64,000 bases of DNA from an uncultured archaeon (GTDB taxonomy: Archaea > Asgardarchaeota > Lokiarchaeia > Sigyniarchaeales > SOKP01): positions 56,092 through 120,091 of the forward strand of contig CAZDTP010000003.1 in NCBI GenBank assembly GCA_964508365.1, given 5' to 3'. Shown here one piece after another: positions 4,383-12,119 of this stretch. Numbering within the stretch: the stretch's first letter is position 1; each line of letters starts with the position of its first letter. The position numbers were made by a program, and so were the translations under genes. Below the pieces are notes generated by a model that was given only the letters and a program-made list of their open reading frames with translations, had not been told where the DNA came from and made no database searches.

Positions 4383-5501
4383 TTACTTCTTTAGGAAATG
4401 TCTATAAATTGTCACATAGTTTTTTACACTTACTACTCTAGGATTACGCCTAAAATTAGAAGGAATAAGAGCACTACAGCGTGAACAGAGTTTTGAAGTC
4501 TGCATCCAATCTTTAAATTCATCAGCGTGGGAAGGATACCTGCAGTTTGGACATACAACTACTCCTCGTCCTCTATCTTCCGGAAGTTTTGGTAATTTAA
4601 AACAAAAGATACACTTGAAATCCTCTAATGTTAAATATGATCCTTTTGGTTTAAATTTGTCAAAATTTTGGATTTTTGAAGTTGATTTAGTTCTAGTTAT
4701 ATGAGTTGCATTTGATGTTTTTTTTCTAGTGGTTTGCTTTTTTGACGTAGGAGTTATTCTTGATGATTGAGTTCTAGATCTTGTTGTACGAGTAGTTGCT
4801 CTAGTAGAGGGTGTTGGATTAGTTACCCTTGTTGTCCTTACATTCTGTCTCTGTATTGTAGGTGTGGTTAAACTATTAATAGTTCTAGTACGATTTGCGA
4901 TGTAATCACGAGTTAATGTAGGTAGTGATGAGCGTGTATTAGTAAATCCAAAAAGTATTACTATTAAAATCGTAGCAATTAATAGCAGCAAGAGATTTAA
5001 GTCTAATGGAAAACTTTCAATAGAACCATAGAAAGTTATCCAATAAGTTAGAATGAAAATAAGAACTGAGATTGATAACATGTACCCTAGCGTTCTCGCT
5101 TTTACTGCCTTTGTTCCAAAGTATATTACATTGTATTTCTTAAAACAACGATATAAAGAGTAAGAACCATACAATATGTAAGGAAAAGCAAAAATTAGGC
5201 TCCATAAACTAAAATATACCCCTCCGAGAAGATTTTCACCCAATACACCTGTATAAAAACCCCATATAGAATAAAAAATTCCCACACATAACGGAAGAAT
5301 TACAAAAAATGCAGTATTTTGTGGTGAATTAAACTCACGATGACGTTTTATGTTTTCAAATATTTTTAAAGTGAATATTAACCATAACCCAATTAATAAC
5401 CAAGTAACAAAATTAGAAAAAGAATAGGAGAGTAAACCATGGATTGCACCAATTATTAGAAAAATAGTACATATTATTGTTATAGTTTTATTTCTTGCCA
5501 T
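4383..5501 (-). CDS. Multi-pass membrane protein with C-terminal RING-variant Zn finger (candidate E3 ligase)
   Basis: About six hydrophobic segments in aa 1-190, an S/T/R/K-rich low-complexity linker, then CIFC-x16-CPNC-x4-H-x6-W-x6-CSRC; last gene of the Ubl-E1-E2-JAMM run. Confidence 0.65.
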   Translation of the reverse strand: MARNKTITIICTIFLIIGAIHGLLSYSFSNFVTWLLIGLWLIFTLKIFENIKRHREFNSPQNTAFFVILPLCVGIFYSIWGFYTGVLGENLLGGVYFSLWSLIFAFPYILYGSYSLYRCFKKYNVIYFGTKAVKARTLGYMLSISVLIFILTYWITFYGSIESFPLDLNLLLLLIATILIVILFGFTNTRSSLPTLTRDYIANRTRTINSLTTPTIQRQNVRTTRVTNPTPSTRATTRTTRSRTQSSRITPTSKKQTTRKKTSNATHITRTKSTSKIQNFDKFKPKGSYLTLEDFKCIFCFKLPKLPEDRGRGVVVCPNCRYPSHADEFKDWMQTSKLCSRCSALIPSNFRRNPRVVSVKNYVTIYRHFLKK

Positions 5502-5533: not shown

Positions 5534-6340
5534 TTATTCATCATATTCTAAATATGCTGGTTTCCCTTCAATAATTGGATTCATGAATTCTAAAATTTCT
5601 GGTAACATTCTCACATCTAAATGGCCCTTAATATCAAAAGGTACCGAGTACCATTTTTTAGTTTTAAAATTTGCACGATAGATCTCAAAACCTACAGATT
5701 TTCCGTTAATTTGATAAGGATCAATTACTAAAGCTACTGATTTATCCCAAAATTGCTGATATCGCCTTTGAGTCCCTAAGTCTTCTCTAGACATGAAACA
5801 TCCATATGAGGGATGAGAATGATACCATCCACAAATAAATTGCTTACTTTTTACAATATCTTCATATGCTCGAGTAAAATTGTTATAATCTTTAATTTCA
5901 GCATAGACTGCAGTGCCGTGACCCATTGGATATGCATCTTCTAAATATAATATTCCATTGTCATAGCTTCCAGCGAGTAACCCAATCACCTCAACCCAGT
6001 TCTCTTTCCTAATTTTGGAATTCGCATATTTCAACGAATGACTTGAGATCTTTAGGATAGCTTTTACAGTTATTTTTATCTTTGCAGAAATTTTATCACT
6101 TTTATCACCTTTAGCGATAGTTATTACAGGTTCCATTGGAATTGGTTCTAATTTGGTTTTTATACTTTCTGAATGGTTTAAAGATTTCGCATCAAAAATT
6201 TCAGCGGTTATTTCTTCCTGTAATTCTTCGAGTTGTAATTCGGTGTATACTTCCTCAAGTATTTCTTTTTTGATCTTTTCCTTTATTTTTTGTTTAATTG
6301 CATCTCTAATTTTTTCACCATTCTCATCGTTAATTTTCAT
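5534..6340 (-). CDS. JAMM/MPN+ metallo-isopeptidase (Rpn11/CSN5-like) with charged N-terminal extension
   Basis: VEVIGLLAG and GWYHSHPSYGCFMSREDLGTQ...VALVIDP match the eukaryotic GWYHSHP.YGC.LS..D..TQ JAMM motif. Confidence 0.92.
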   Translation of the reverse strand: MKINDENGEKIRDAIKQKIKEKIKKEILEEVYTELQLEELQEEITAEIFDAKSLNHSESIKTKLEPIPMEPVITIAKGDKSDKISAKIKITVKAILKISSHSLKYANSKIRKENWVEVIGLLAGSYDNGILYLEDAYPMGHGTAVYAEIKDYNNFTRAYEDIVKSKQFICGWYHSHPSYGCFMSREDLGTQRRYQQFWDKSVALVIDPYQINGKSVGFEIYRANFKTKKWYSVPFDIKGHLDVRMLPEILEFMNPIIEGKPAYLEYDE

Positions 6341-6344
6341 AAAA

Positions 6345-6872
6345 TCACCATTTATCCTTCGCGTATTTCTTTACCAAATTCCTAACTTTTTTTTCAAAAT
6401 TTTTCTGATCTTTCATCATCTCAATAGCTGCCTTTTTGTTAAAAACATCAGTTGGATTAACATATTTTCCACGAGTGTTTAACATAGCAATTATTGCTTG
6501 AACAACTGTAACCGCTGTTTTTGAAGGACTCCATCCCCCTTTTTTGCCAGTTAGAGAAGGATCTACTAAAGCTAAGCAGATATTTCTTTGTCCTTTATAT
6601 TCACTTGGCTTTGGCCAAAAGTTTGGATGCCATATCGGAGTATGCAATCTAACAAAAGGAGGCTGATTTGGATATTGAACAGGAAACTTCATTTCTAATT
6701 TAAACAATCCTCCTGCATAAGCAGTGCCTTTAGGACCTTTAATCGTAACAGCTAAGTGATCGATGCTCTTTTTTTTTGGATTAAATGGCTTTAATTGGAT
6801 AATTGTACCTTCCTTTAGCAACTTTTTTAGTCCCGCAAAATCTCGGGAAACTCGACTACTTCTTATACTCAT
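6345..6872 (-). CDS. Ubiquitin-conjugating enzyme E2 (UBC fold)
   Basis: IKGPKGTAYAGGLF.L...FP..YP..PP.V...TPIWHPN...IC...WSP; HPN motif and catalytic Cys present. Confidence 0.93.
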   Translation of the reverse strand: MSIRSSRVSRDFAGLKKLLKEGTIIQLKPFNPKKKSIDHLAVTIKGPKGTAYAGGLFKLEMKFPVQYPNQPPFVRLHTPIWHPNFWPKPSEYKGQRNICLALVDPSLTGKKGGWSPSKTAVTVVQAIIAMLNTRGKYVNPTDVFNKKAAIEMMKDQKNFEKKVRNLVKKYAKDKW

Positions 6873-6938: not shown

Positions 6939-8174
6939 TTATTTAAATTTTAAGGTTACATAAATCTCTCCACCTTTAAACCCCGCAACTGTGAGAAATT
7001 CGTAATTCCTCAAATCGTTTTGTACAAGAGTTTGGTCATTATCTAAAACGACAATATCATTAAAATCTAATAAAGTTAAAACCGGTTCAAATTCAGATTC
7101 CAATTCATATCCATTTCTTTCTAGTGTTTTAATTAAATTTGTACAAGGTGAAGTACTCTTCATTTTAATGGAAACTCGTCTTACCTTTTTACCGCACTGA
7201 GAACATTCTGGATTTCTCTTCTTTTCAATGTGGTATAGTTTCATTGTCACAGCATTAAATATCACATAACTTGTAATAGGCTGACCTAATCCTTTATGAC
7301 CCCTTTTCCAATGAAGGATTTTAACCACCTCATGAGATTGTAATGCCGAAATAGTTGCGTTAATTGTAATTATCCCAGGATCGTGGCGATCAATAATTTT
7401 TACAATATCATCTTCGGTATATTCAGGTAAGAAATTGTGTTTTACAACAAGTTCATTTGCAACTTTTTGAATAAATCTAATATCTTCTACATTTTTAGGA
7501 TTTGGATCTGTGTCAAATTTATCTTTAAAGGCCATATCTCCTTTAAAGACACAATGAATTCTTTTTCGAGGGATGCCAACCACCGTGCAAGCTGCCATTT
7601 CATCACTTTTGAGATCTGGCAATGGATTGCATTCATAACATGCATTTCGATATGGAAATATCGTATATATGTGACCATAATAACCAGAAACCCCTCCATC
7701 TACTAAAGGTTTTCTGAATCTAATGCATTGAGCGTTTAAATTTAGCCTTGCGTTCATTGAATCAAGACCTCCAATTACAACATCTGCATTATAATAGAGT
7801 GCAGGGTTTAATCTTTCTAAGGATGAATGATACCCTTTAACAATAATATTTGGATTAATTTCGACTAATTTTCTTGCAGCTGCAATTGCTTTGGGTTCTC
7901 CTAACTTTGCGCCCACAAACAGAATTTGACGGTTCAGGTTAGAATGTTCAATTATGTCTAAATCGACAAGATCTATATGACCTACCCCTAACATGGTTAA
8001 GTTTTTAGCAATTTCACATCCTAAACCTCCTACGCCAGCTATTAATACTCTCGACTTTTTTACTAATTTCTGGGACCATCCTTCTAAACGAAATTGACGA
8101 TCGTATAAGTCTCTCTCTTCTTCTGACATTCCCTTTGCAAAAAAATCTGAATTCTTACGCAATATTATCACCAT
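6939..8174 (-). CDS. Ubiquitin-like activating enzyme E1 (Uba3/Uba2-like) with probable C-terminal ubiquitin-fold domain; real start may be MSEEER
   Basis: LYDRQ, AGVGGLG, DLDIIEHSNLNRQ, CYEC...CSQC Zn site, catalytic MAACT..PRKRIHC resembling Uba3 CT..PRLPEHC. Confidence 0.92.
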   Translation of the reverse strand: MVIILRKNSDFFAKGMSEEERDLYDRQFRLEGWSQKLVKKSRVLIAGVGGLGCEIAKNLTMLGVGHIDLVDLDIIEHSNLNRQILFVGAKLGEPKAIAAARKLVEINPNIIVKGYHSSLERLNPALYYNADVVIGGLDSMNARLNLNAQCIRFRKPLVDGGVSGYYGHIYTIFPYRNACYECNPLPDLKSDEMAACTVVGIPRKRIHCVFKGDMAFKDKFDTDPNPKNVEDIRFIQKVANELVVKHNFLPEYTEDDIVKIIDRHDPGIITINATISALQSHEVVKILHWKRGHKGLGQPITSYVIFNAVTMKLYHIEKKRNPECSQCGKKVRRVSIKMKSTSPCTNLIKTLERNGYELESEFEPVLTLLDFNDIVVLDNDQTLVQNDLRNYEFLTVAGFKGGEIYVTLKFK

Positions 8175-8247: not shown

Positions 8248-8583
8248 TTATTTAAAAGTACCCGCTGTGCTTGCAGGGATTAAAAGTATATCGTCGCCAT
8301 CATTAACATTATAGTCTTTTAACTGGCTACTCTCATCCATTGTTCTTCCACCAGAAGAAAGATGGAACTCATCTGGATCAAGTCCGAATAGATTTCCTAA
8401 TGTTTGTTTGATATCGCTTACGTTATTTGCGTCATTTACAGTTAACTTTTCCTTCTTTTCACCAGGACCAATAGTTGACATGAAATATAAAGTCAACTTC
8501 TTACCTGTTGAGGGAACTTTGCTTGATGGGGTTTTAGATTTAACTGGTTCTAACTCCTCATCAAAATCTTCATTATAACCCAT
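8248..8583 (-). CDS. Ubiquitin-like protein Ubl1 (acidic N-terminal tail; ends IPASTAG-TFK)
   Basis: Beta-grasp/ubiquitin pattern VSDIKQTL...LSSGGRTMDESSQLKDYNVNDGDDILLI; directly upstream of E1. Confidence 0.85.
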   Translation of the reverse strand: MGYNEDFDEELEPVKSKTPSSKVPSTGKKLTLYFMSTIGPGEKKEKLTVNDANNVSDIKQTLGNLFGLDPDEFHLSSGGRTMDESSQLKDYNVNDGDDILLIPASTAGTFK

Positions 8584-8845
8584 TTTAATCGTTTCTCTTA
8601 TTTTTTTTTTAAAGTTTTTTTTTTAAACTTAATAATATCAAGTTAAAATGATATTAAAAAACCCATTGGAATGATTTTGAAGTTTTTTGAATTTTTGTTT
8701 AAAATATAAGTATCTACATCAAAAAACCTAATATCATATATTTATAAATTAAATGAATGACTATCAATATATATAAATAGGAAAATATCGTATTAGAGAG
8801 AAGATTTGATTATATAAATCAATTTATTCAACACGTTAAAATCAA

Positions 8846-9529
8846 TTGCTTATGAGCACTCCAGATAACCTTCAATCTATTGTTTGTAATCTAATAAAGG
8901 AATATCTAAAAAAGAAACCTTTCTTTTCAATAGAAGATATTGTAATGTTCATCAGTAATAGGGTAAGAACTAACCCTAATTTGAACAAACGCAGCATTGA
9001 AATCATCATTAAAAATCTCATTAAAAGAAGAATTCTAATCCCTGGAACTAAATTAATGAAAAATAATATCATCGAGCATCCAATAAGAAATGAAATCTAT
9101 AATTATATAAGAAAGAATCCTTCGAATGTTAATGATATAATGAAAGCAATTAATATTGGGAGTAATCAAGCGTTATGGCATTTATCTTGCTTAGAAAAAT
9201 TTAGATTTACAAGATCAACAAAAATCGAGAATCAAAGAATAATTTTTGAATATGAATCAAATTCAGATCTAGATGAGTTGTATTACTATTTAAAACAGGA
9301 TATTGTACAAGATATTATCAACCTACTGAAAAAAGAAAACACCTCATTTAAAATTACGGAAATTGCTGCCAATTTAAAAAAAAATTACAATACTGTAAAA
9401 AAATATCTTGAAATATTAGGAACTCTGAAAATATTAAAAATTGAAAAAAATAAAAAAAGAGTTTTATTCAGATTAGATCAAGAGAAATATGATAATATTA
9501 GGAAATCCATTATTGATGGTGAATTATAA
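8846..9529 (+). CDS. Tandem winged helix-turn-helix protein, probable transcription regulator
   Basis: Two HTH-like units (NVNDIMKAINIGSNQALWHLSCLEKF; KITEIAANLKKNYNTVKKYLEILG); divergent from Ubl1. Confidence 0.65.
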   Translation: MLMSTPDNLQSIVCNLIKEYLKKKPFFSIEDIVMFISNRVRTNPNLNKRSIEIIIKNLIKRRILIPGTKLMKNNIIEHPIRNEIYNYIRKNPSNVNDIMKAINIGSNQALWHLSCLEKFRFTRSTKIENQRIIFEYESNSDLDELYYYLKQDIVQDIINLLKKENTSFKITEIAANLKKNYNTVKKYLEILGTLKILKIEKNKKRVLFRLDQEKYDNIRKSIIDGEL

Positions 9530-9608
9530 AATTTACAAAGTTATTCCAATGGAATTTATATTTTGAATTATATATTAGAAAATTAGATAATACTTTAATC
9601 AAAAAATC

Positions 9609-10397
9609 ATGAAGAAGAAATATAGAGTTTTAAATATCATAACTCTTTATGTTGTTTTCACTTTAATTTATTTGATTTTTTTCATATTCCAAATAGAGAG
9701 TTTACCTTTATTTCTCTTTCTAACTATTGGGAGTGTTGCTGTATTATCTACCAGCACGATCTATACCGTTGTTAAATCTAAAAGCAGTCCAGCGAAGAGG
9801 ATAAAAAAAGATAAATATTATCAAAAACCAAAATCAATCAAAAGAATATCGAGTGATTTGATTGAGGATTACTTCGAAGCCATGCCATTAATAGATCAAT
9901 ACGCTGATACTGATGTATCTTTTGAAAATGTAGAATCAATCGATGATTATATCTTCACTTTTTTCAAACAAGAGGAAGTAGATAAAATCGATTTGTTAGG
10001 GTTTTCAAAAATGGATAAAATCTTTTTTATCAGAGAGATGTTGTATTTTGATGCTGGTGAGAGAAAGCAGCTAATCGAAGATATTTTGAAAAATAAAGAT
10101 ATAACTGATGAACAGATAAAATACTACCCGCCTTTAAACATAATTGGATTGAATGATAAATTACGCGTTTACATAAGGTCATTAGTCGAACCTGGTGAGA
10201 AGACCAAAATACTCATAATTGAAACCTCCGAATTAATAAGTATAATCAAAGAACAAGTTGGAATTCTATTTGATTATGGTTTAGAAGATTTTTCCCTATC
10301 CACAGGAGGTTTAATATTAGATGAAACTAAGCAGATAAAGGACTATTTTATTGACGAGGATGACGAAATTGCTTTAATTCCATCAAAAAAAAAATAG
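9609..10397 (+). CDS. Membrane-anchored protein with C-terminal ubiquitin-like domain lacking a terminal Gly
   Basis: Two N-terminal hydrophobic helices; the C-terminal ~80 aa align by eye with Ubl1/Ubl2 (EPGEK, IKEQV, LSTGG..LDE...IKDY.I..DDEI.LIP); ends PSKKK. Confidence 0.75.
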   Translation: MKKKYRVLNIITLYVVFTLIYLIFFIFQIESLPLFLFLTIGSVAVLSTSTIYTVVKSKSSPAKRIKKDKYYQKPKSIKRISSDLIEDYFEAMPLIDQYADTDVSFENVESIDDYIFTFFKQEEVDKIDLLGFSKMDKIFFIREMLYFDAGERKQLIEDILKNKDITDEQIKYYPPLNIIGLNDKLRVYIRSLVEPGEKTKILIIETSELISIIKEQVGILFDYGLEDFSLSTGGLILDETKQIKDYFIDEDDEIALIPSKKK

Positions 10398-10416
10398 AAT
10401 TATTTTTTTTATAGTT

Positions 10417-10836
10417 TTATATCCTTTCAATATAACAACCAGCAACACTCGCTGGAATTAATAAAATGTCATCTCCATCATCTACATTGTAATCACTCAG
10501 CGTAGATTCTTCATCCATGGTAACTCCTCCAGAAGACAAATAAAAATCAGATGGATCTAAAGCAAATAAATTCGCTATAGTATCTTTAATATCTCTTACC
10601 ATATTACCCGTGAAGACGGTAAGCTTTTGTTTTTTCTCCCCTGGTCCTATAGTGGATAAAAAAAAAACTGAAATCTTTTTTCCTTCAGAAGAGATTGTGG
10701 GTTCTGGAGTTTTAGATCTAATATCTTCTGTTTGGTCCTTTTTAGACTGATCATCAATATCTTTATCCAAGCTTTCATCAATTTCCTCATCGAATTCTTC
10801 ATCGAACTCCTCTTCAAATTCATCGTCAAAATCCAT
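10417..10836 (-). CDS. Ubiquitin-like protein Ubl2 (long acidic tail; ends IPASVAG-CYIERI)
   Basis: Clear paralog of Ubl1 (STIGPGEKK.KLTV, LSSGG.TMDE, DYNV.DGDDILLIPAS.AG). Confidence 0.85.
   Translation of the reverse strand: MDFDDEFEEEFDEEFDEEIDESLDKDIDDQSKKDQTEDIRSKTPEPTISSEGKKISVFFLSTIGPGEKKQKLTVFTGNMVRDIKDTIANLFALDPSDFYLSSGGVTMDEESTLSDYNVDDGDDILLIPASVAGCYIERI
10785..10833 (-). repeat. Imperfect ~12-nt coding repeat giving the (D/E)EEF acidic tail of Ubl2
   Basis: Protein reads DFDDEFEEEFDEEFDEEIDE. Confidence 0.5.
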
Positions 10837-11015: not shown

Positions 11016-12119
11016 ATGAAGGATAAACCTATTCCTAAGTATCAAATTCGAGAAAAAACACCCGAAGAGCAACTAGACACCATTCCTAAAACAAAATTAC
11101 TTAAAAAAATTAAGGAAGAAAGAATTAAATTAAATAGAGAAAAAACTGAATGGGAGAGCGTTATTAGCAAAGTTGAAGGTTATCAAGATAATATTCAAGA
11201 TTTAGAAAAAAAAAGAAAAGAAAAAGAACTTCAAGTCAGAGACCTTCAAAATCAACACGAAAAACTAAAAAACGATCTAGACAATATGAGAAATGAATTA
11301 AAAGAAAGTAAAAATAATCTATATGAGAAAGAAAGGGAGTTAGATCAAAAAAATGCTGACTTAGAGCGATATCAAGAGAGATTAGATGGACTAAGAGATG
11401 AATTAGAGAGTGAGAAGAAAGACTTAGAAAGAGAAAAAGAAAAAGCAAAAGAAAGAATTAAAGAAATTAAAACCAAATTACCCGGAATGGAACGGAGAGA
11501 GAGTGCCTTAGAGAGAACAATTGAAAAGTTGGAAAACAATTTAATGGATTTAAGAAACGAAGGTAAGAGTTTAACGAGAGAAAGAGATAATTTAAACAAT
11601 GAAATCAATAGTTTGAGAAGAGAGATAGTAGATGAAAAAAATCGAATTGATGATGAGAAAAGAAGATTAAAAGATGAAAAAGAAAAGGTTCGCTATAAGA
11701 AAAAAGACTTAAGTCTCAAAGCTCGTGATATTGAAAAAAAAAAAGAGCAATTGGGAAAATTTAAAGAGGATGTAGATCACGATGTAAAAGACTTAGAAAG
11801 AAAGAAAAAAGGGCAAGAAGTAAGATTAAAGGAATTAGATAGGAAGGTACCTAAGGCAGAAGATACTTATTTTTCATTAGAACATAAAATTGGTAACTTA
11901 GAAAATAAACTGAAAAGCTTAAAAGATGAAATAAAAAAACTGGAAAAGGAAAAATCGAAAATAGAAGACGATAAATTTTCAATTAGAAAGGAGAGGCAAA
12001 GATTAGAAAGTGATAAAGAGAGATTTCTTAAAGAAAAAAGAGATTTTGAAAGAGAATTGAAAAAAACAAAAGAAATCCCAAAATATAAAATCAAATCAAA
12101 AACGCCTTCGAGATATTAA
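11016..12119 (+). CDS. Long coiled-coil rod protein with matching head and tail motifs
   Basis: About 330 aa of K/E/L heptad sequence; IPKYQIREKTP at aa 6-16 and IPKYKIKSKTP at aa 354-364. Confidence 0.75.
   Translation: MKDKPIPKYQIREKTPEEQLDTIPKTKLLKKIKEERIKLNREKTEWESVISKVEGYQDNIQDLEKKRKEKELQVRDLQNQHEKLKNDLDNMRNELKESKNNLYEKERELDQKNADLERYQERLDGLRDELESEKKDLEREKEKAKERIKEIKTKLPGMERRESALERTIEKLENNLMDLRNEGKSLTRERDNLNNEINSLRREIVDEKNRIDDEKRRLKDEKEKVRYKKKDLSLKARDIEKKKEQLGKFKEDVDHDVKDLERKKKGQEVRLKELDRKVPKAEDTYFSLEHKIGNLENKLKSLKDEIKKLEKEKSKIEDDKFSIRKERQRLESDKERFLKEKRDFERELKKTKEIPKYKIKSKTPSRY

Follow-up and report, generated by a model that had tools for sequence, protein, structure and literature searches.

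Where does a ubiquitin-like protein end, at the last residue that its gene encodes or at the last one that evolution keeps? The question is raised by an uncultured Loki-type Asgard archaeon, in which a 64,000-nucleotide stretch of contig CAZDTP010000003.1 (the whole stretch that we analyzed, from here on the window) encodes two ubiquitin-like proteins (Ubls). In translation Ubl1 ends ...LLIPASTAG-TFK-stop and Ubl2 ends ...LLIPASVAG-CYIERI-stop. A preliminary description of this DNA pointed out that conservation between the two runs up to the Gly and gives way to unrelated tails, and translation and BLASTP agree: identity is 63% over 102 residues, the alignment ends one residue past the Gly, and the two tails are unrelated to each other. 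The genes and their parts are:

8248..8583, minus strand: Ubl1 precursor, 111 aa (ORF, PF00240), with an acidic disordered N-terminal tail (1-27), a ubiquitin-type beta-grasp (28-103), a flexible ...IPASTAG, and then TFK
8527..8544, minus strand: V-K-S-K-T-P motif in the N-terminal tail of Ubl1
8260..8265, minus strand: Ala107-Gly108, putative mature reactive end of Ubl1 (translation, phmmer register and Ala-Gly invariance)
8251..8259, minus strand: Thr-Phe-Lys tail of Ubl1, putative pro-peptide, 376.2 Da (translation)
10417..10836, minus strand: Ubl2 precursor, 139 aa (ORF), with an acidic N-terminal tail longer than that of Ubl1 and the same core
10438..10443, minus strand: Ala132-Gly133, putative mature end of Ubl2 (translation)
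10420..10437, minus strand: CYIERI tail of Ubl2, putative pro-peptide, 777.4 Da (translation)
9609..10397, plus strand: membrane protein whose C-terminal domain is a Ubl from this family without the Gly, ending ALIPSKKK (ORF)

The N-termini of both Ubl1 and Ubl2 are acidic, as had been described, and the disorder proposed for them fits the low pLDDT (55-69) of residues 1-27 in the AlphaFold model of Ubl1. A [VIL]-x-[SAT]-K-T-P motif is found in 222 of the 278 family members, and in 205 cases the STIGP core follows it 22 residues later. The same genome has a third free Ala-Gly (AG) paralog on another contig, which ends SSSAG-IY. The membrane protein is 36% identical to Ubl1 in the broad family alignment and has a weak PF00240 match at residues 194-257. 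No AG end is present in its orthologs in 55 loci, which end ...IPSRKxx or near variants, and judging from its sequence this Ubl cannot be conjugated.

When homologs are aligned, AG is invariant and the tail is variable, which is the outcome that a cleavage site at the Gly had led one to look for, and it holds in two sets of 120 ortholog clusters and in 135 free Ubl genes. All 120 Ubl1-type cluster representatives have AG, with about one third of them terminating there, and so do all 120 Ubl2-type representatives, of which 107 terminate at AG and none shares the CYIERI tail, which is unique to Ubl2 among its 120 ortholog clusters. AG is also present in 37 divergent representatives (40-60% identical), and its conservation extends over eight families of the phylum in GTDB, where identity falls to about 45%. 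The free Ubl genes come from 80 Asgard loci from GTDB, 54 of which we count as complete (E1 and JAMM both present). Every one of these 135 genes has x-S-x-A-G; the stop codon comes directly after the Gly in 98 (73%), and in the other 37 the Gly is followed by 1-7 residues that share no consensus. Taking all homologue sets together, between 0 and 9 residues follow the Gly, without consensus. By these counts the AG pattern lies far beyond chance, and the tail after the Gly is unconstrained. The family is widespread among Asgard archaea of Loki type and in several further Asgard lineages.

At the level of DNA, too, the tail is unconstrained. One and the same downstream DNA yields no tail, YF, TFK, N, LN or KNNF by means of point changes and one-base shifts. 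The TFK tail of Ubl1 goes back to the common GGA-TAC-TTT-TAA ending (YF), in which the loss of one base in the Gly codon shifts the frame. Relatives found on short metagenome contigs, outside the window, also have head-to-tail poly-Ubl genes, with three units in P0121, P0392 and P0393 and two in P0122, and at their internal junctions ...STAG is followed by the acidic tail of the next unit. From this layout, the inner units would be releasable only by a cut after AG. (One further protein, P0394 with 534 aa, looked like a Ubl-E1 fusion and was rejected, as it is a frameshifted Ubl1 read through into the E1 gene.) That the protein functionally ends at the Gly of AG, and that the residues beyond it are dispensable, is supported because the stop adjoins the Gly in most orthologs, because the reading frame of the tail is not conserved, and because the poly-Ubl genes have AG at every junction.

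What kind of modifier is it? Ubl1 matches PF00240 with 32.7 bits, above the cut-off of 25.4, and Ubl2 is slightly below it with 25.2 bits. The AF2 model of Ubl1 has a pLDDT of 80.6 overall and of about 90 in the core, and structure searches with it give as best matches the ubiquitin of C. subterraneum (CsUb), ubiquitin, ISG15 and SUMO. Foldseek places CsUb on top (6FNO, 6FNN and 6FJ7), along with ubiquitin and ISG15, at a target-normalised TM of 0.8-0.9; in VIA-align, ISG15 has a Z of 14.2 (rmsd 1.6 over 77 residues) and ubiquitin a Z of about 13. PDB entries 8HM1-3, labelled putative ubiquitin, were rejected as relatives because they are Bacteroides toxin-like ubiquitin homologues. The ungapped phmmer alignment of Ubl1 46-101 with ubiquitin 14-69 puts Ubl1 residues 107-108 on Gly75-Gly76 of ubiquitin, and in the same alignment Ser76 and Arg80 of Ubl1 occupy the positions of ubiquitin Ile44 and Lys48. 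Downstream of Ubl1 on the same strand are the enzymes, and a likely regulator stands between the Ubl genes:

6939..8174, minus strand: E1, 411 aa, ThiF adenylation domain (PF00899, 190.8 bits), catalytic Cys in ...AACTVVGIPRKRIHC...
6345..6872, minus strand: E2, 175 aa, UBC fold (PF00179, 94 bits), HPN, Cys in NICLALV
5534..6340, minus strand: Rpn11-like JAMM, 268 aa (PF01398, 51.8 bits), with Glu117, His174/His176, Ser184 and Asp187; candidate pro-peptide remover and deconjugase
4383..5501, minus strand: candidate RING-type E3, a multi-pass membrane protein that carries a Cys/His zinc domain at its C-terminus (ORF, CxxC/H pattern)
8846..9529, plus strand: double winged-helix (ArsR/HrcA-like) protein, likely regulator (Pfam HTH_5, HrcA_DNA-bdg)

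The gene order Ubl-E1-E2-JAMM-RING-type recurs in related genomes, and E1 and JAMM occur together in 54 of the 80 GTDB loci. The Cys of the E1 aligns with the PGCTIRN...IHC segment of SAE2; its structure model is poor (pLDDT 59.4, from a shallow alignment), too low to confirm an E2-binding domain. The closest solved relative of the JAMM is CsRpn11 of C. subterraneum (6fjv, E-value 4e-16). Of its 55 orthologs, 53 keep the catalytic motifs intact, and the enzyme looks active. The candidate RING-type gene is conserved 3′ of the JAMM in 51 loci, and its label is a reading of the Cys/His pattern, Pfam giving just a weak Zn_ribbon match. The winged-helix gene is found in 60 of the 80 loci. The proposal in the preliminary description that two paralogs share one E1 is not supported in that form: the genome has three free AG paralogs plus the Gly-less membrane form, and on contig C6 a second related E1/E2 pair that has no adjoining Ubl.

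A single Gly exposed by proteolysis had suggested UFM1 and ATG8 as analogs. Could Ubl1 and Ubl2 be archaeal UFM1 homologues with a UFM1-like pathway? The UFM1 system consists of UBA5, of UFC1, which lacks HPN, and of Cys proteases. The ends are alike, since UFM1 ends ...ELRIIPRDRVG-SC (PDB 8ohd_D), with the same I-P-x4-G spacing, a short removable tail, and a single Gly after a small hydrophobic residue, as in ...LIPASTAG-TFK. Moreover, a 2026 paper used structure to place homologues of Ufm1 in nine clades of Asgard archaea, and some of these homologues have long disordered termini and multiple hit regions (PMC12962969), features that fit the look of the Ubl1/Ubl2 family. Against this, it is PF00240 that Ubl1 matches, and its best structural matches are those given above. 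The UFM1 family, PF03671, has no match in this genome at E-values up to 10, none above the cut-off across 121 Asgard genomes, and none among the Pfam matches of Ubl1 or Ubl2 at E-values up to 0.1; UFM1 is also missing from the best 50 matches of both structure searches, which is weak evidence alone. The enzymes point the same way. The best PDB relatives of the E1 are SAE2 (4e-36), UBA1 and UBA3, and it is much nearer to them than to UBA5 (2e-14); the E2 has HPN and belongs to the UBC enzymes, and as protease the locus has a JAMM in place of a UFSP-type Cys protease. The outcomes for Pfam, E1 and E2 led us to reject UFM1 membership, which we consider very improbable. The analogy survives for the tail and fails for the fold and the enzymes, both of which are of ubiquitin type. 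That Ubl1 and Ubl2 are ubiquitin-type modifiers, a variant of ubiquitin's archaeal forerunners and not a new kind of system, is well supported.

If the tails have to come off, what removes them? In C. subterraneum CsRpn11 removes the CsUb pro-peptide (PMC6043591). For the pair in the window, a model of JAMM 80-268 with Ubl1 25-111 has an ipSAE of 0.83 against 0.02 for the best control, a similar complex (6FNO) having already been solved; among solved complexes 58 of 80 attain the ipSAE mark, among mismatched pairs 2 of 110. At least 92% of the contacts agree among the model runs, with a partner pLDDT of at least 86. Residues 100-110 of Ubl1 are modelled against Glu117, His174, Ser184, Glu186 and Asp187 of the JAMM, again in a complex like that of 6FNO. 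Because that similar complex has been solved, the model demonstrates a resemblance and may reproduce a structure already familiar to the predictor. From the model and the analogy together, maturation of Ubl1 and Ubl2 by the adjacent JAMM is plausible.

Two observations complicate this assignment. CsRpn11 processes the Gly77Ala mutant of CsUb much more slowly and the Gly77Val mutant not at all (PMC6043591), so it is not obvious that a site of Rpn11 type would accept a penultimate Ala. And 32 of the 54 complete loci have tail-less Ubls only and nonetheless keep the JAMM, so pro-peptide removal is not its main conserved job. Perhaps, then, the tails are removed by another JAB protein or by a carboxypeptidase, with AG still the reactive end and the operon JAMM a deconjugase only. 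The genome does have seven JAB-domain genes, most orthologs need no trimming at all, and with tails of just 1-9 residues an exopeptidase is conceivable. However, the poly-Ubl precursors require an endopeptidase that cuts after AG, the JAMM is the sole protease conserved in the locus, the complex model places the Ubl1 tail in its active site, and both CsRpn11 and BilC, which are operon JAMMs too, each do both jobs (PMC6043591, PMC10557695). On balance we find trimming from outside the operon unlikely.

With the JAMM of the operon kept as the probable trimming enzyme, we infer a pathway of cleavage after AG, charging by the E1 and conjugation. TFK and CYIERI would be evolutionary accidents at the stop codon, to be removed before the protein can be used. 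The Rpn11-like JAMM would most likely trim them and would release the tag from its targets as well. The E1 of the operon, which is of canonical type, would adenylate the exposed Gly and take it up as a thioester on its Cys, the Ubl would then pass to the Cys of the E2, and from there it would reach target lysines, aided by the membrane-anchored candidate RING protein.

A different possibility is that Ubl1 and Ubl2 are never conjugated, and act either as non-covalent adaptors like Hub1 or as sulfur carriers like MoaD, ThiS and Urm1. Ser76 and Arg80 at the positions of ubiquitin Ile44 and Lys48 could be read that way, the Gly-less membrane paralog shows that the fold has a non-covalent use, and one source labels a homolog 'molybdopterin converting factor small subunit'. 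But sulfur carriers end in Gly-Gly, their systems lack the E2 and RING-type neighbors that are conserved here, and a terminal Gly that never varies and is followed at once by the stop indicates that the C-terminus is reactive. We give the absence of conjugation very little credence. Taken as a whole, the view that these are Asgard modifiers ended by AG, with accidental tails, likely removal by the JAMM, and conjugation by an E1-E2-RING-type set of their own, seems to us a good deal more probable than its alternatives combined.

The same genome has a separate Gly-Gly (GG) type Ubl system, with a JAMM, an E1, an E2 and a Ubl that ends RVVGG-Q, on contig C31. Across these genomes the GG-type Ubl serves as an internal control, having an invariant end of its own with 0-4 variable residues behind it. 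Because the two systems co-reside in the same genomes, the AG family is a distinct class, and the AG-terminated modifier class put forward in the preliminary description stands, with AG invariant and the GG-type system separate. The penultimate Ala may be what keeps the AG system apart from its GG neighbor. It is a more tentative thought, one that we would rather doubt than defend at present, that Ala is a mark of specificity separating the two systems, and that both the split into modifier classes and the polyubiquitin gene design are archaeal and precede eukaryotes. If it were true, the poly-Ubl genes, the SUMO-like N-terminal tails with their Lys motif and the enzyme fusions would mean that parallel modifier classes predate eukaryotes. 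On this reading, AG tags would go with their own E1, E2 and S-x-E-D JAMM, and GG tags with an S-D-T-D JAMM. Cited for it as well are whole enzymes (a HerA-like ATPase and Cdc48_N-VWA proteins) that end in a conjugatable AG-Ubl.

Asgard ubiquitin clusters are models for the origin of eukaryotic ubiquitin signaling, and two co-resident systems provide a natural test of how E1s and JAMMs read the residue before the reactive Gly. We found no explicit account of Ala-Gly ends in Asgard Ubls in open-access papers or bioRxiv; in the searchable literature Asgard tags are simply 'ubiquitin homologues'. There are practical consequences. Standard proteomics of di-Gly remnants would miss AG-Ubl conjugates, on which trypsin would by calculation leave 19 residues in the case of Ubl1 (1943.9 Da) and 49 in that of Ubl2. 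Constructs for experiments should stop at Gly108 for Ubl1 and at Gly133 for Ubl2. And the family is one in which most species need no processing, and which includes poly-precursors and fusions as well.

How does the system compare with those already known? The conjugated modifiers of canonical E1s (ubiquitin, NEDD8, SUMO, ISG15 and FAT10) have a C-terminal Gly-Gly. That end is absent here and an invariant Ala-Gly takes its place, while the adjacent E1 with its aligned Cys segment and the UBC-fold E2 with HPN are similar to theirs. The head-to-tail repeats of the relatives resemble eukaryotic polyubiquitin genes in needing cleavage after the terminal Gly of each unit, and differ from them by including the acidic tail of each unit as a spacer. 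Like SUMO, the Asgard Ubl has a disordered N-terminal tail with a conserved Lys-containing motif. UFM1 differs by having its own Pfam family, and its UBA5, UFC1 and Cys-protease features are unmatched in the Asgard locus.

The nearest archaeal relative is the C. subterraneum operon, where pro-CsUb, an E1-like protein, an E2-like protein, CsRpn11 and a small RING protein are encoded together (PMC5654768, PMC6043591). As here, a Ubl, an E1, an E2, an Rpn11-like JAMM and a RING-type protein form one cluster, the Ubl is synthesized with extra C-terminal residues, which there the JAMM takes off, and CsUb and CsRpn11 are the best structural match of Ubl1 and the best solved relative of the JAMM, respectively. 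On the other hand, CsUb has Gly-Gly plus nine residues, whereas the Asgard family has Ala-Gly and most of its orthologs have no extension. The Asgard family also adds the acidic N-terminal tail with K-T-P, several paralogs and poly-Ubl genes, its locus adds the membrane-anchored RING-type protein and the Gly-less membrane Ubl, and its JAMM has S-x-E-D where CsRpn11 has S-P-T-D.

The bacterial BilABCD system (Ensifer aridi BilA and BilC) differs in being linked to phage defence, in having no RING protein, and in an E1 that combines an inactive and an active adenylation domain in one chain, the Asgard E1 having a single one. By its description it is similar in its conserved Gly with a variable tail and in the JAMM of its operon, which cuts after the Gly and also deconjugates; its E1 and E2 resemble the canonical type, and some of its Ubls are fused to other domains. 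In BilA proteins one Gly is conserved universally, and as many as nine variable residues come after it, which the operon JAMM cuts off, and E. aridi BilA ends ...Ala-Gly-Ala, its lysine conjugates carrying an Ala-Gly remnant (PMC10557695). By analogy, the BilA system is an experimental precedent for an Ala-Gly end combined with trimming by a JAMM.

The Ala-Gly (AG) end of the two free ubiquitin-family (Ubl) tags in the window is a real and strongly conserved feature. The tags belong to the following locus.

Genes of the Ubl locus (coordinates, strand, product and evidence)
4383-5501, -, membrane protein with a Cys/His zinc domain (ORF and domain search)
5534-6340, -, JAB/JAMM protease (ORF and domain search)
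6345-6872, -, UBC-fold E2 (ORF and domain search)
6939-8174, -, ThiF-type E1 (ORF and domain search)
8248-8583, -, Ubl1, ends ASTAG-TFK (ORF, translation)
8846-9529, +, double winged-helix protein (ORF and domain search)
9609-10397, +, membrane protein with a Ubl domain at its C-terminus (ORF and domain search)
10417-10836, -, Ubl2, ends ASVAG-CYIERI (ORF, translation)

Translation confirms the ends that the preliminary description had read for Ubl1 and Ubl2, which share 63% identity as far as the Gly. Its expectation that homologs would keep the AG and vary the tail held in the Ubl1-type, Ubl2-type, divergent and GTDB sets. All 120 Ubl1-type clusters (74-94% identity) carry ...IP-x-S-x-A-G; about one third end at the AG, and the others extend with YF, RLI, K, CFE and so on. 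Among the Ubl2-type clusters, 107/120 end at the AG and 13/120 have unrelated tails of 1-9 residues. The AG is retained by 37 of 37 divergent representatives at 40-60% identity (from a library clustered at 50% identity), and by all 135 free Ubl genes in 80 loci from GTDB species genomes, 98 of them tail-less and 37 with tails of 1-7 residues. At deeper divergence, the motif persists in members of eight GTDB families of the phylum. The Gly-Gly Ubl that the same genomes encode serves as an internal control and behaves alike, ending in an invariant ...RV[IV]GG plus 0-4 variable residues.

Homologous DNA downstream of the Gly is translated in different species into no tail, YF, TFK, N, LN or KNNF. 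The TFK of Ubl1 is the common GGA-TAC-TTT-TAA ending minus one base in the Gly codon; the Gly is kept, and because of that lost base the tail is in another frame. Thus, the differing tails and frames of homologous DNA show directly that there is no sequence constraint on the tail.

The fold agrees with a ubiquitin-type tag. Ubl1 matches the ubiquitin family profile, and in its AlphaFold model the N-tail (residues 1-27) is disordered, the beta-grasp core confident and the C-terminal tail loose. The best Foldseek match is Caldiarchaeum subterraneum ubiquitin (CsUb), both free and bound to the Rpn11 homolog (CsRpn11), followed by ubiquitin, ISG15, Hub1 and SUMO; an all-against-representatives structural search agrees (ISG15 Z 14.2, ubiquitin Z ~13). 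In an ungapped alignment Leu101...Gly108 of Ubl1 corresponds to Leu69...Gly76 of ubiquitin, so that Ala-Gly occupies the Gly75-Gly76 position with a tail of equal length, and Ser76 and Arg80 fall at the positions of ubiquitin Ile44 and Lys48.

The disordered N-tails carry a [VIL]-x-[SAT]-K-T-P motif in 222 of 278 family members (window 8527-8544 in Ubl1), 22 residues ahead of the core in 205 cases, which may serve for docking, as an acceptor lysine or for phosphorylation. The Ubl2 N-tail also has the conserved motif, and sequences resembling it, IPKYQIREKTP and IPKYKIKSKTP, lie at the two ends of the coiled-coil protein adjoining Ubl2 (11016-12119).

In four independent metagenome proteins the complete AG-family unit, from the acidic tail through the K-T-P motif and core to the AG, is repeated head to tail, with three units in P0121, P0392 and P0393 and two in P0122. 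Every junction reads ...STAG and then the acidic tail of the next unit; to judge from these sequences, the inner units can only be released by a cut after the AG. These polyubiquitin-like genes (loci L095, L096) all lie on contigs shorter than 2 kb. An AG-type Ubl domain is also found at the end of whole proteins, with the stop at or just past the Gly: HerA-like proteins of ~600 aa (P0144, L128, L129), Cdc48_N plus VWA proteins (P0162, P0176), and a zinc ribbon plus coiled coil protein (P0395). In principle, such proteins could be activated whole and joined to targets in one piece.

The window is DNA of a Loki-type Asgard archaeon, with ~31% G+C; public records list homologs as Promethearchaeota. 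The order Ubl1-E1-E2-JAMM-membrane RING (putative) is conserved over 80 related loci, accompanied by the winged-helix gene, the membrane Ubl and Ubl2, and E1 and JAMM are both present in 54 of the 80. The membrane-anchored paralog (9609-10397, +) has a Ubl domain that ends ALIPSKKK, without a terminal Gly, and none of its orthologs across 55 loci has an AG end, the endings being ...IPSRKxx or close variants. On its sequence this Gly-less Ubl cannot be conjugated, and it may be a membrane dock for the machinery or for readers. The window E1 is nearest to SAE2 (4e-36), UBA1 and UBA3, and UBA5 is far weaker (2e-14). Its segment ...AACTVVGIPRKRIHC... aligns with the SAE2 segment PGCTIRNTPSEPIHC, which holds the catalytic Cys. 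The E2 has HPN, with its Cys in NICLALV.

Is the JAMM there to trim the tails? The catalytic Glu, His-x-His, Ser and Asp motifs are preserved in 53 of 55 orthologs, and CsRpn11 is its closest solved relative. A complex model of the JAMM domain with Ubl1 residues 25-111 reaches an ipSAE of 0.83 (best control 0.02). Of 80 solved complexes 58 attained that mark, as did 2 of 110 mismatched pairs; contact agreement between runs is at least 92%, and partner pLDDT is 86 or higher. The STIGPGEK loop and Ubl residues 100-110 contact the protease, including Glu117, His174, Ser184, Glu186 and Asp187. Because CsRpn11-CsUb has already been solved, the model shows a likeness and may owe its score to that known structure. 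Ahead of the catalytic Asp, 52 of 53 JAMMs of AG-type operons have S-x-E-D (window residues 184-187), whereas CsRpn11 has S-P-T-D and the Gly-Gly-system JAMM of the same genome S-D-T-D; Glu186 touches the Ubl tail in the model, and the difference is no more than a lead towards co-adaptation. Two observations temper the idea of trimming. In CsUb, changing the penultimate Gly77 to Ala makes cleavage much slower, and Gly77Val is uncleaved (PMC6043591). And 32 of the 54 complete loci have tail-less Ubls alone, with the JAMM still present. The maintained role of the JAMM is probably deconjugation, trimming being a by-product through which accidents at the stop codon can persist.

The genome holds five ThiF-type, three E2-type and seven JAB genes. 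The preliminary description counted two paralogs, but a further one on another contig (C12) ends SSSAG-IY, making three free AG paralogs. Contig C31 (L006:2016-5501) encodes a second complete ubiquitin-type system: a JAMM of 167 aa, an E1 of 296 aa, an E2 of 188 aa, an 85-aa Ubl whose end reads ...RVVGG-Q, and a membrane protein that is RING-like at its C-terminus. By single-protein query the GG-type Ubl occurs in 20 of 201 Asgard genomes, and the AG family occurs in all 20, so the two classes co-exist and do not replace each other. A third E1/E2 pair (contig C6) has its E1 at L007:2024-3601 (+, 525 aa) and its E2 at 4411-4920 (-, 169 aa, HPN); this E1 shares 46% identity with the window E1 across the adenylation domain, and the AACT...HC Cys segment is the same in both. 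No Ubl gene lies beside the pair, which could serve an AG paralog or a Gly-Gly protein on contig C1. There, an 89-codon open frame (L001:1490-1760, -) has the genome's best ubiquitin-profile score, 38.6 bits, and ends tail-less in ...VMATQAGG-stop. No ATG, GTG or TTG is in frame; directly ahead of a five-A run there is a GTG that is out of frame by one base. It could be that the A-run is misassembled, that the start is unusual or that the gene is dead.

We conclude that Ubl1 and Ubl2 belong to a family of ubiquitin-type modifiers whose reactive end is Ala-Gly and whose tails are dispensable and unconstrained, encoded in a canonical-type E1-E2-JAMM-RING locus (the RING being putative). The mechanism of these tags we infer from homology and context. 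In the portions of the Hatano et al. catalogue of the Loki 'Ub region' available to us (PMC9192718), we found no comment on the C-terminus. The Caldiarchaeum operon has the same design (PMC5654768, PMC6043591), apart from the Ala-Gly end of the window tags, their optional tail and their N-terminal tail, and the paralogs and membrane parts of the window locus. UFM1 has a similar tail design, ...IIPRDRVG-SC, but its profile, E1, E2 and protease all differ; structure-based Ufm1 homologues were described in nine Asgard clades in 2026 (PMC12962969). In the bacterial Ubl BilA, up to nine non-conserved residues follow a single universally conserved Gly, after which the operon JAMM cuts, and E. aridi BilA ends Ala-Gly-Ala, with an Ala-Gly remnant on conjugates (PMC10557695). 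For the logic of the window system, Bil offers a direct precedent from experiment.
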